This document shows, piece by piece, positions 39,498 to 41,725 of a DNA stretch of 64,000 nt. The notes under the pieces are model-generated. The model was given only the letters and a program-made list of their open reading frames with translations, did not search any database and was not told where the DNA came from. The stretch is from a virus, in the IMG/VR virus record IMGVR_UViG_3300032236_001530, positions 32,001-96,000 of that record, one strand, 5' to 3'. The first letter of the stretch is position 1. Each line of letters starts with the position of its first letter. Both the position numbers and the translations under genes were made by a program.

Positions 39498-39526
39498 AAA
39501 ACCCACCAATTGGTGGGTTTCTTTTT
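39496..39526. terminator. Bidirectional intrinsic terminator
   Basis: AAAAAACCCACCA-AT-TGGTGGGTTT. Confidence 0.8.
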
Positions 39527-39893
39527 ACTTAATACTCTCAAGTATATTCTTAATCTCTTCCAAGTGATACTTGTTACTTTTAACACTTTTCATTTTCTTT
39601 TCTAAGAAAAGGTTATTACTGATAACACACTTAGCATTGTTGTTATAATATTTGATATAAGAATCAATGTCAATTTTGCTAAGTTTGTAGTTAGAACTTC
39701 CTATCTTTTCAAGTTGGAAAAAGTCCTCGTTTATTTTAATTACTTTGAAATAAGTGAATTCATTGTAGTCATATTCGTGATAACTACCTTCAGCATTCCA
39801 CTTAAAAGTTGCCTTTGGTTTCACAAAAGTGTGTTGAGATGTTTTAGTTAAATAATTAACGATTTCTTGTTTGATTTGTTCTGCGTTTTTCAT
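39525..39893 (-). CDS. Hypothetical protein, last gene of the amber-gated operon
   Basis: ORF. Confidence 0.65.
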   Translation of the reverse strand: MKNAEQIKQEIVNYLTKTSQHTFVKPKATFKWNAEGSYHEYDYNEFTYFKVIKINEDFFQLEKIGSSNYKLSKIDIDSYIKYYNNNAKCVISNNLFLEKKMKSVKSNKYHLEEIKNILESIK

Positions 39894-39897
39894 AATA

Positions 39898-40485
39898 TTA
39901 ATTTTTATTTTTTAATTGATTTATAATTTGTTTACCTCTTTGGTTAATACATTTCCATTTAATCTTGAAAGAGGTTGAATCAAGACCACCGAACATTTGA
40001 GCATTTGAATGTAACTCGGCTAACCCCGTTAACAATAAGGTTAAGGCATAAGGATTCTGACAGAATTGATTAACACCATCAGATTTCAATAAATGAATAT
40101 CCATGTCGTGTAGGATCAATTCAGCAGCAACTGAATTATTAAATACTTGGTTAAATACTTTATAAGATACTTCCGCATGATTTGGGAAATGTCTTTTACC
40201 ATCTGCGTCAATTTCTAAGCAGAATGGTTTACCACAATCGTGATAAATTGTGTATAGTTCTAATGTTTCATCATCTGGTAAAGACGATAAAAGAAGGTCT
40301 TTATTTTCTAAGACCCAATCTGGTAAATTCCATTCATATTGTAATGGTGTACCATTTCTTAAATGATTAATAAGGTCAAATAAGTAGTTCTTAACTGAAG
40401 TACCGTGTTCTAAAACAGATTGACCTTTGGTCTGTTCGCATTCAGACATTCTCTGAATTAATTCTTGTTTTGTAATCTACAACAT
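39898..40485 (-). CDS. HD-domain phosphohydrolase; proposed true start ATG-TTG-TAG-ATT requiring TAG readthrough
   Basis: EHG..YHDCGKP..HFPNHA..DMDIH; ATG at 40485 is in frame with the ORF-track ATG 40449, with TAG at 40479-40477. Confidence 0.75.
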
Positions 40486-40489
40486 AGTT

Positions 40490-41182
40490 TTATTTTTTAA
40501 TTTTTGTTTTTAATTCTTTACATAAATGTGGATGTACCCACTTTTCATTTTGAATATTTACTTCTTCGGCTTTGCCTTCTTCAAGTAAATTATTAAATAA
40601 TTGATATCTATCATGATGTCTTATTCCAGTAGTTTGATCTTTTATTGACTTAATATTACCATCTTCCATCTGAATAAACAAAGTTCCTTTTTTGTACTTA
40701 AAAGTTGATTTTGTTCTTTCATAATAAATTTCACAATCATCTTTTACTTTCCAAGCTTTGATTTCATAAACTTTTGGATCTTTTGGTTTACCAGTTAGCA
40801 ACTGATCAATTTTATACTCTCTATATTGAGGTTCTGTCATCTTGTATAAAGGTGCTATTCTAAATTCATAGCCATCTCTATGACTTGGGTAGATTTTAGT
40901 AGCTGCATCTAAAGCAGCACTTCTACTAACATAGATTCTATGATTCCAATAAGTAGACCAAGAATACCACTCACCTCGTGTATCTTTATATCTAAATTCT
41001 AATGTCCAACCATATACTTGAACATCATTGGCTACAGATTGTACTTTGAGTATTTGACTATCAGCAATAGCGTATTCTTTACCATTTATAGTGTATCTCA
41101 TTATATCACTATTATAATGGTCTTTAGGTTTTTCAACTTTTGTTGTTTGTTTTTTCTTAAAAATATTAAATAACTTTTTCAT
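40490..41182 (-). CDS. Hypothetical protein with internal tag motif (REYKIDQLL)
   Basis: ORF between the two amber-containing genes. Confidence 0.7.
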   Translation of the reverse strand: MKKLFNIFKKKQTTKVEKPKDHYNSDIMRYTINGKEYAIADSQILKVQSVANDVQVYGWTLEFRYKDTRGEWYSWSTYWNHRIYVSRSAALDAATKIYPSHRDGYEFRIAPLYKMTEPQYREYKIDQLLTGKPKDPKVYEIKAWKVKDDCEIYYERTKSTFKYKKGTLFIQMEDGNIKSIKDQTTGIRHHDRYQLFNNLLEEGKAEEVNIQNEKWVHPHLCKELKTKIKK

Positions 41183-41528
41183 TTTGATTTGTTTTATTTT
41201 TTAGAGCTAAAGGTAAATGTGATAAGCTCTTACGAATTTGTGGAGTACCATAAAGACACACTGAAGTAAACTCATCTACATCAGGTTCAAAGAACATAAC
41301 AGCGTCTGTTAGTTCTTTATACTTATGATAAAGTTTTTGTAATTCAAATTCATTTTTAACTGATAAACAGATAATAGAATTTGATTCATCTTTCCACTTG
41401 GAAAAAGTTTTTGAGAATTCAAAAGCAAAGTCAGCAATTGAATGGGTTGATTGTACTACTTGGTAACCATCTGAGATATCACTTCTTGTGATAACAATTA
41501 ATTTTGGTTCTGTAATCTAATTTTTCAT
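41166..41528 (-). CDS. Peptidyl-tRNA hydrolase 2 (PTH2)-like protein with in-frame TAG at codon 4 (absent from ORF track)
   Basis: MKN*ITEPKLIVITRSDISDGYQVVQSTHSIADF..SIICLSVKNEFEL..FFEPDVDEFTSVCLYG..IRKSLSHLPL; no alternative in-frame ATG before the core motifs. Confidence 0.8.
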
Positions 41529-41552
41529 AATATATTTTTTTGTTTTTTGTTT

Positions 41553-41637
41553 AAAATAAAAATCCTCCATAATAAGTTCTAACCGAGTGCTCGCTCTCAT
41601 CAGCATTAGCTGGTTGGTTAGATTCCTATTAAGGAGG
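41553..41637 (-). terminator. Attenuator-like branched hairpin followed by U-rich tract
   Basis: CCUCC/GGAGG, UAAUAGG/CUUAUUA and UCUAACC/GGUUAGA stems, inner CAGC-UAAU-GCUG, then AUUUUUAUUUU. Confidence 0.7.
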
Positions 41638-41673
41638 TCTTTCTAAAAATTTATATGTGCTAATCTACATCAT
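41629..41673 (-). CDS. Leader peptide MM*ISTYKFLERPP with in-frame TAG at codon 3
   Basis: ATG ATG TAG ATT AGC ACA TAT AAA TTT TTA GAA AGA CCT CCT TAA; last codons form the 5' arm of the hairpin. Confidence 0.65.
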
Positions 41674-41693
41674 TGTCTTGAATTATTATACTA

Positions 41694-41725
41694 CAAATAT
41701 ATATCAAAAGTTTTGTTCTTCCAAA
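41694..41725 (-). promoter_or_regulatory. Promoter of the amber-gated operon (TTTG-N20-TATATTTG)
   Basis: Exact Bacteroidota -33/-7 consensus 20 nt upstream of the leader ATG. Confidence 0.8.

Follow-up and report, generated by a model that had tools for sequence, protein, structure and literature searches.

How can a phage gene be expressed when its third or fourth codon is a stop, and what decides when it is expressed? The question is raised by a single minus-strand transcription unit (positions 39496–41725, delimited from the sequence, the list of open reading frames (ORFs) and a promoter/terminator scan) in a window of 64,000 nt from the virus record IMGVR_UViG_3300032236_001530, the full record of which is a 155-kb contig. 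The unit comes from a jumbo phage of Bacteroidota and includes a short leader ORF, a gene for a hydrolase with the fold of peptidyl-tRNA hydrolase 2 (Pth2) and a gene for an HD phosphohydrolase, each of them with an in-frame amber codon (TAG; UAG in the mRNA) right after its ATG. Judging from the comparison of many related loci, production of the Pth2-like and HD enzymes probably requires, and scales with, decoding of the early UAG by a phage-encoded tRNA with the anticodon CUA, tRNA(CUA).

The three starts, which sequence and translations confirm as given in an earlier reading of the sequence alone (hereafter the original prediction), are ATG ATG TAG ATT AGC in the leader, ATG AAA AAT TAG ATT ACA in the Pth2-like gene and ATG TTG TAG ATT ACA in the HD gene, the ATG of the latter sitting 4 nt past the upstream TAA. 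The Pth2-like frame (M-K-N-stop-ITEPKLIVITRSD...) has 116 open codons beyond the TAG and the HD frame (M-L-stop-ITKQELIQRMSECEQ...) has 192. Throughout the 155-kb contig, an ATG followed after 0–3 codons by TAG-ATT and a long open frame is confined to the genes of this operon; the word TAGATTA as such occurs 33 times in the window against 25 expected, which is no enrichment.

Homologues were collected from GenBank jumbo phages, IMG/VR and metagenomes (80 IMG/VR and 80 metagenome loci; the fetched loci carry L numbers, L004 being the Tenacibaculum phage pT24, NC_049383.1, and L025 being LR756504.1) and deduplicated to 116 distinct Pth2-like genes. In 102 of these an in-frame stop occurs at codon 2–11 after an in-frame ATG, in 63 cases at codon 3. 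This stop is TAG in 100 genes, TAA in two and TGA in none, although TAA strongly predominates among the stops of these AT-rich genomes. The codon that follows is ATT in 57 genes, GTA in 18, GTT in 10, ATA in 6 and otherwise ACT, ACA, AGC, AAC, AAA or AAT; the original prediction had proposed TAG-ATT as the word to be examined for conservation, and it is the TAG that is conserved, with ATT next in only the 57. A purine directly follows the early stop in every one of the 102 genes, as against about half of the genuine TAG stops of this contig and LR745206.1. A purine following UAG is the classical favourable context for amber suppression in Escherichia coli. The early TAG is also present in 19 of 20 distinct HD homologues in any gene order, including Pth2-HD fusions. 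The canonical-start Pth2-like homologues lie mostly on GC-richer contigs and some have N-terminal extensions.

The nearest records are LR745206.1 and LR756500–LR756504 ('uncultured phage', 634–735 kb), seemingly the huge phages of Bacteroidota described by Al-Shayeb et al., together with pT24. The form ATG-x(-x)-TAG-ATT is found at the start of the leader, Pth2 and HD genes of LR745206.1 and of the leader and Pth2 gene of LR756502.1, and the Pth2 start carries the early-TAG form in LR756504.1, LR756501.1, LR756500.1 and pT24 as well. Eight distinct Pth2-like homologues have a second in-frame TAG within the body of the protein, at one of three conserved sites (behind EFP, inside KEWN-x-NSKYL or behind EPG), where the conserved sequence resumes directly and without a gap; the TAG is therefore taken to be decoded and not bypassed. 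Comparison of the aligned sequences thus shows, as far as alignments can, that TAG is translated as an amino acid in the Pth2-like family. Pth2 and HD are the only recurrent early-TAG families in the fetched loci. Two loci have an additional frame with the start ATG AAA (AAG) TAG ATT just 3' of the Pth2 gene, namely L006 (2846–2893, IKITIRGPTYLF-stop) and L116 (5387–5880, a 161-aa frame INIRGPDEMF...), which may be another gated ORF or a leader ahead of tRNA(CUA).

The gated genes occur together with candidate suppressors. Of the 80 IMG/VR loci, 36 contain a tRNA(CUA) predicted by ARAGORN, as do most metagenome loci with sufficient 3' flank; the tRNA usually lies 0.8–2.1 kb downstream, and all 62 suppressor tRNAs counted share the strand of the gene. 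Using a slightly relaxed ARAGORN threshold with a T-loop filter, and loci with at least 2.5 kb on each side, a tRNA(CUA) lies within 4 kb of the gene in 35 of 53 early-TAG loci and in 1 of 12 canonical-start homologues (Fisher p = 3e-4). One of the two TAA-start homologues, L109 (ATG ACT TAA ATT), pairs with a tRNA(UUA) 0.9 kb upstream, and the other is on a contig too short to judge tRNA linkage. In L103 two tRNA(CUA) genes stand directly 5' of an amber-gated leader with the Pro-Pro-stop ending and a Pth2 gene of the window's type. The cultured phage pT24 has only three tRNAs according to ARAGORN, one tRNA(CUA) (record positions 191520–191594) and two tRNA-Ile(UAU), and its sole early-TAG gene is a Pth2-HD fusion that starts ATG AAA TAG ATA; the annotated protein gp293 begins at a downstream ATG (locus position 2582), the conserved Pth2-HD frame at 2447 (2447–3400). 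The two pT24 features annotated as 'tRNA-Undet' are the ones that ARAGORN calls tRNA-Ile(UAU).

Comparison of the loci thus shows the gated genes to be linked to a putative cognate suppressor tRNA, and the module looks closed, with the Pth2/HD genes as the suppressor's only conserved targets. Translation of the leader, the Pth2-like and the HD genes would begin normally at the ATG and run into a UAG at the third or fourth codon, where the phage amber-suppressor tRNA would insert an amino acid. The original prediction had proposed that the operon is expressed only when UAG termination fails, as a translation-stress sensor responding to depletion or inhibition of release factor 1 (RF1) or to a suppressor tRNA. 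Expression dependent on readthrough, and a suppressor as its possible cause, agree with the conserved stop, the internal TAGs, the tRNA linkage and the TAA/tRNA(UUA) pair; the stress-sensor version finds no support, and the evidence favours a programmed dependence on the phage's suppressor tRNA.

The leader, ATG ATG TAG ATT AGC ACA TAT AAA TTT TTA GAA AGA CCT CCT TAA in full, has the form M-x-UAG-I-x(8-9)-P-P-UAA, which is preserved in five diverged operons (those of the window, LR745206.1, LR756502.1, L081 and L103). After ATG-x-TAG the peptides of the relatives read INTYYNFVVVPP, IKTYKNLVVKPP, ILTYNNLERPP and IFKISNITKPP, followed by TAA. The Pro-Pro-stop codons of the leader, CCUCCUUAA, are at the same time the 5' arm of a terminator-like hairpin, and the five operons fold alike: CCUCCUUAA opens the hairpin, ..AAGGAGG closes its base and a U-tract comes next, with an inner sequence that is entirely different between relatives. 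The hairpin of the window has a minimum free energy of -32.3 kcal/mol (z -5.9), a stability that none of 200 shuffled sequences attains, and compensatory changes affect 7 of 25 pairs of the consensus hairpin. A search of the window at Rfam gathering thresholds gave no known RNA family at the leader region. A conserved short ORF that overlaps a terminator hairpin and U-tract is the arrangement of a leader-type attenuator, and the description of this region as leader and attenuator in the original prediction is strengthened by the preservation of the design, the z score and the compensatory pairs.

These features suggest a second, transcriptional gate in the window's subclade that would also depend on suppression. 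If the leader UAG is suppressed, the ribosome would reach the Pro-Pro-UAA, dwell there and cover the 5' arm of the terminator, and RNA polymerase would enter the operon; after release at codon 3, the ribosome would leave the terminator free to form. We infer this attenuation step from the layout of the leader. A Pro-Pro-stop ending is a slow-termination context. As in the trp leader and TnaC, a short conserved leader ORF ends within the 5' arm of a terminator hairpin; the quantity sensed here, in contrast, would be suppression of the UAG at codon 3 and not the supply of an amino acid or a small ligand, and an alternative antiterminator hairpin is neither needed nor seen.

Several observations weigh against the dependence of the two enzymes on a phage suppressor and against the leader model. 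The main gap for this particular phage is that the search for a tRNA(CUA) proposed in the original prediction found none in the window's own 155-kb contig. CheckV rates the record 83% complete, a figure that looks generous in view of relatives of 385–640 kb, and the suppressor may be in the missing part, absent, or too odd to detect. No suppressor lies within 4 kb in 18 of the 53 long-flank loci, the closest relatives of the window among them; the latter have no canonical tRNA(CUA) near the operon, and in LR745206.1 default ARAGORN gives no tRNA(CUA) among about 60 tRNAs called. The distal candidates of LR745206.1 and LR756502.1 are called only with lowered ARAGORN thresholds, and the former scores 28.5 bits against Rfam tRNA-Sec, the gathering score of which is 47. 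An in-frame Met is conserved 9 codons past the TAG of the HD gene and is a possible alternative start. The internal TAGs align to E, D, T or I columns and are uninformative on the inserted residue. To our knowledge, there is little documentation of ribosome-coupled attenuation from Bacteroidota. The resemblance of the suppressors to other phage tRNAs pointed to no consistent isotype.

The candidate of LR745206.1 (507340–507420) is a GC-rich tRNA-like gene with the anticodon loop UUCUAAC behind a TAnnTTTG promoter motif; its acceptor stem has 8 bp and its D-stem 6 bp, and the anticodon stem has no more than four pairs. In its homologue in LR756502.1 both the acceptor stem and the D-stem show compensatory changes. 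A candidate CUA tRNA of more ordinary form occurs in LR756504.1, and in L087 and L089 candidate CUA tRNAs whose anticodon stems have 4 bp lie upstream of the Pth2 genes, at distances of 2.3 and 3.5 kb. An exact 15-mer of the LR745206.1 candidate retrieved only chance coding matches in IMG/VR.

Other unusual tRNA-like genes occur in the same phages. Genes resembling tRNA-Ser (anticodons GCU, UGA and GGA), in which the acceptor stem has 8 bp and the D-stem 6 bp, are found in LR745206.1 (343845–344291), LR756502.1 (375709–375975) and L081 (7643–7729); they are missed by default ARAGORN, and some reach 47–51 bits, exceeding the gathering threshold of Rfam tRNA-Sec. In LR745206.1 the candidate tRNA(CUA) is built in the same way and has the same T-arm, but its variable arm is short. 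A further tRNA-like gene of this genome (407364–407437) has the anticodon loop AGUAGG or CAGUAGGG, which contains UAG itself and not its complement.

Readthrough does not have to be programmed, and the early ambers could be passed at a basal or stress-induced rate by near-cognate host tRNAs or where RF1 is limiting, leaving the enzymes scarce or responsive to termination stress. A purine after the stop and a stop close to the start also favour spontaneous readthrough, and the early stops have both properties; the lack of a detected tRNA(CUA) in the window's own contig, and within 4 kb in its closest relatives, points the same way. Even so, this explanation seems unlikely, as the early stop travels with a same-strand cognate suppressor (TAA with tRNA(UUA)), the complete relatives with the same leader hold CUA-anticodon tRNA candidates elsewhere in the genome, and TAGs in the body of an enzyme would be costly if readthrough were rare. 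Another proposal dispenses with decoding of the UAG: ATG-x-TAG would be an upstream ORF of 2–3 codons and the ATT a weak, IF3-sensitive start for re-initiation, as in infC. It would account for the ATT that follows the TAG at all three sites of the window and in 57 of 102 homologues, and for the want of an ATG, GTG or TTG near the N-terminus of the Pth2-like frame. The remaining homologues, however, have mostly non-start codons at this position, 100 of 102 stops are TAG though TAA would do equally, eight genes have TAGs deep in the protein and the gene is linked to suppressor tRNAs. On account of the internal TAGs and the non-start codons, re-initiation at the ATT, which the original prediction had named as an outcome that would speak against it, is therefore rejected as very unlikely.

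Related huge Bacteroidota phages (Lak, crAss-like) do reassign TAG (Borges et al., 10.1101/2021.08.26.457843; Al-Shayeb et al.), and the gated genes might be ordinary genes of a genome recoded throughout in the manner of code 15. Such a genome would have TAG in many genes and would not use it as a stop. Here TAG terminates 13 of the 158 long ORFs of the 155-kb contig, among them the four stops listed in the original prediction (7894, 19490, 23858 and 45646, all TAG), and 45 of 599 long ORFs in LR745206.1, and no other gene of the contig is split or joined across a TAG; the genome is therefore not recoded, in agreement with the original prediction. Early-TAG frames elsewhere in the complete genomes of LR745206.1 and pT24 are no commoner than the TAA and TGA controls, and only Pth2/HD recur in the fetched loci, so that genome-wide reassignment is hardly credible. 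The probability that the stops are assembly or sequencing errors, or mark decaying pseudogenes, is practically negligible: their mere presence in reading frames would fit, and nothing further does, while the feature recurs in more than 100 independently assembled and diverged genomes, one cultured phage included, and the proteins are conserved and have high-confidence predicted folds. Errors or recent nonsense mutations had been expected to reveal themselves by sense codons in the homologues, and 102 of the 116 have the early stop. Two further candidates were discarded. Quadruplet decoding of UAGA by tRNAs with anticodon loops of 8–9 nt does not suit a protein that continues in the zero frame, with a +1 frame that closes within a few codons, and a UAG start codon read by an initiator-like tRNA does not suit the conserved in-frame ATG 1–10 codons upstream.

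If the early UAG is decoded by a suppressor, as preferred here, the products are two small enzymes. The first gated protein is assigned by profile and model comparison to a divergent Pth2 subfamily with predicted tRNA-hydrolase activity. By itself it stays just below the cut-off of PF01981 (E 1.6e-4, 22.3 bits, cut-off 23) and well below that of NCBIfam TIGR00283 (23 bits, threshold 82); the family profile matches solved Pth2 chains over the full length with E 1.4e-7 to 1e-5. The AlphaFold2 (AF2) model (predicted local distance difference test score, pLDDT, 93.2) has the Pth2 alpha/beta fold, superposing on six Pth2 structures with Z 14.1–14.9 and root-mean-square deviation (rmsd) 2.0–2.3 A over 101–105 residues, of which AF2095 Pth2 gives Z 14.9 and 2.2 A over 105 residues, and on unrelated folds with Z <4. 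R11, Q22, H25, E77, P78, D79 and T84 are invariant in 46 Pth2-like sequences, and the Gly-Lys-Gly-Lys stretch of Pth2 is aligned to Pro-Gly-Tyr-Gln in the phage family. Pth2 was described in jumbo phages by Iyer et al. 2021 (PMC7824862), who proposed peptidyl-tRNA hydrolysis during ribosome rescue; the protein family is identical and the phage type comparable, and neither the early amber codon nor the linkage to suppressor tRNAs figures in their survey. The Pth2 homologues of mycobacteriophages, unlike the gene of the window, are annotated with ordinary starts.

The HD protein likewise falls just short of PF01966 (E 2.6e-4, 21.7 bits, cut-off 22) and matches phrog_14850 with E 6e-64. The HD metal motif is intact, H24, H79-D80, H100, D124 and H128 being invariant in 11 sequences. 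The AF2 model (pLDDT 95.8) has the helical HD fold, and its best match is to residues 250–447 of PDB 3WFR/3WFQ/3WFO (Z 15.0, rmsd 2.7 A over 159 residues, 21% identity), many other HD enzymes giving Z 8–10.6, and the HD profile hits the same chains with E 0.007. The entries 3WFO–3WFS, named 'Poly A polymerase' by their depositors, are taken here as class II tRNA nucleotidyltransferase, and the predicted structure of the HD phosphohydrolase resembles the C-terminal part of this enzyme, which provides both the best structure and the best profile match and has the HDxGK motif in common with it. In contrast to that enzyme, the phage protein lacks a nucleotidyltransferase head and stands alone or, in some phages, is fused to Pth2. 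In the CCA-adding enzyme of E. coli the HD domain is a 2',3'-cyclic phosphodiesterase and phosphatase. The Pth2-like and HD enzymes are both predicted, plausibly, to act at the 3' end of tRNA. Pth2 and HD are fused into a single protein in pT24 and in two IMG/VR phages, and for this reason a common substrate is argued.

Several elements of this arrangement have counterparts in known systems. Stop recoding by phages with suppressor tRNAs, such as the reading of TAG as Gln in code 15, has been described (Borges et al., 2021 preprint, 10.1101/2021.08.26.457843; Peters et al., PMC9523058), and it has been proposed to time the translation of particular (late) genes, standard-code phages that carry suppressors being mentioned too (10.1101/2021.08.26.457843). 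Peptidyl-tRNA hydrolases are mentioned neither in this work (10.1101/2021.08.26.457843) nor in Al-Shayeb et al. In code 15 phages, as here, a phage suppressor tRNA renders an in-frame stop readable; there, dozens of late, structural and lysis genes have TAGs scattered along their length and the genome is counted as recoded, whereas in the present phages TAG is still a stop and only the leader/Pth2-like/HD set is gated, in the first codons, in a fixed purine context and with the tRNA adjoining. An early in-frame stop in a translation-factor gene is also known from prfB, in which a UGA gauges its own decoding efficiency and sets the expression of release factor 2 (RF2). In contrast to the gated genes, where the frame is unchanged and escape would be by suppression, prfB gets past its stop by shifting into the +1 frame, and its product is the very factor that recognises this stop. 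The bar minigenes of phage lambda, of the 2–3 codon type, cause peptidyl-tRNA drop-off and dependence on Pth. Unsuppressed, the starts described here would equally be minigenes of 2–3 codons; those of lambda are free-standing and toxic, while here the minigene heads a hydrolase gene and the frame continues. Phage suppressor tRNAs, recoding as a proposed regulator of late genes and PTH2 in jumbo phages are already published. No mention of the conserved early amber of Pth2/HD, its tRNA linkage or an amber-sensing leader was found in the searchable literature, in line with the statement in the original prediction that no description of the arrangement was known.

As to the purpose of the gate, our best guess is that it couples suppressor activity to enzymes of the tRNA 3' end. 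One possibility, analogous to prfB, is a negative feedback that limits readthrough where UAG is still in use as a stop; the gate could also act as a feed-forward supply of Pth when readthrough yields stalled or dropped-off peptidyl-tRNA, or simply in timing. A more specific version, in which the ambers measure suppressor activity and the Pth2-like and HD enzymes deacylate or trim that very tRNA and so hold UAG readthrough at a given level, is put forward tentatively and is on the doubtful side; if true, it would be a tRNA-based homeostat, the counterpart of RF2 autoregulation, reinforced by an attenuator that senses suppression. Roles in ribosome rescue and counter-defence are conjecture.

The features of the operon and its surroundings are compiled in Table 1. 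The promoter announced in the original prediction is present as a promoter-like site ahead of the leader, where a sigma-70-type scan gives TTGGAA-17-TATATT at 41724–41696. The site includes a TAnnTTTG element, which we take to be of the Bacteroidota promoter type and which also precedes the leaders of L001 and L002 and candidate tRNA(CUA) genes. The two ORFs with ordinary starts (230 and 122 aa) have no family in Pfam, PHROG or NCBIfam, and an Atlas search with the former gave no usable match; a homologue of it occupies the equivalent position in the operon of LR745206.1.

Table 1. Features of the amber-gated operon and neighbouring elements in the 64,000-nt window.
Feature	Position	Strand	Details
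Promoter-like region	41685..41725	(-)	TTTG 41725-41722, 20 nt, TAtaTTTG 41701-41694, overlapping TATAAT 41690-41685
Leader ORF, 14 codons	41629..41673	(-)	M-M-UAG-I-S-T-Y-K-F-L-E-R-P-P-UAA; ATG at 41673, amber 41667-41665
Terminator-like attenuator hairpin and AUUUUUAUUUU tract	41553..41645	(-)	hairpin 41645-41557; tract 41563-41553
Pth2-fold hydrolase gene	41166..41528	(-)	M-K-N-UAG-I-T-E-P-K-L-I-V-I-T-R...; ATG 41528, amber 41519-41517
230-aa ORF	40490..41182	(-)	normal ATG; overlaps end of Pth2-like gene; from ORF list
HD phosphohydrolase gene	39898..40485	(-)	M-L-UAG-I-T-K-Q-E-L...; ATG 40485, amber 40479-40477
122-aa ORF	39525..39893	(-)	normal ATG; from ORF list
Operon terminator	39496..39523	(-)	12-bp stem then T-run; from terminator scan
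Smr-domain protein, 72 aa	41732-41950	(-)	PF01713, 28 bits
tRNA-Glu-like gene	28813-28887	(-)	
tRNA-Glu-like gene	~28595-28755	(-)	extra ~85-nt insertion in 5' half
GOLLD RNA, full length	27529-27936	(-)	Rfam RF02032, 269.8 bits

The gene for the Smr-domain protein is immediately upstream of the operon. In LR745206.1 the gene end at the corresponding position resembles a class II aminoacyl-tRNA synthetase, and in one metagenome locus (L194, 2318–3316) an AsnA-like gene (aspartate-ammonia ligase/class II synthetase-like) lies directly 5' of a Pth2 gene and tRNA(CUA). Farther away in the window, the GOLLD RNA is located directly 3' of a small tRNA cluster. In both tRNA-Glu-like genes the anticodon loop, UUUUCG, is 6 nt long and apparently lacks position 37, and comparable 'tt' tRNAs are found in LR756504.1 and L266.

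The gating should be amenable to experiment, as one of the phages (pT24) is in culture, the reporter involves a single codon and both enzymes are small, and the ATG-x-TAG-RUN contexts together with 81 diverse tRNA(CUA) sequences may be of use in genetic-code expansion. The gating also accounts for the omission or truncation of these genes by gene callers, as in the case of pT24 gp293. If the attenuator model is true, the leader would be the first leader peptide that senses nonsense suppression. For the biology of jumbo phages, many of which have the standard code and carry suppressor tRNAs without obvious reason, the Pth2/HD genes would provide such tRNAs with a concrete and conserved target, and stop suppression would serve as a gene-specific switch rather than as a change of the whole code.

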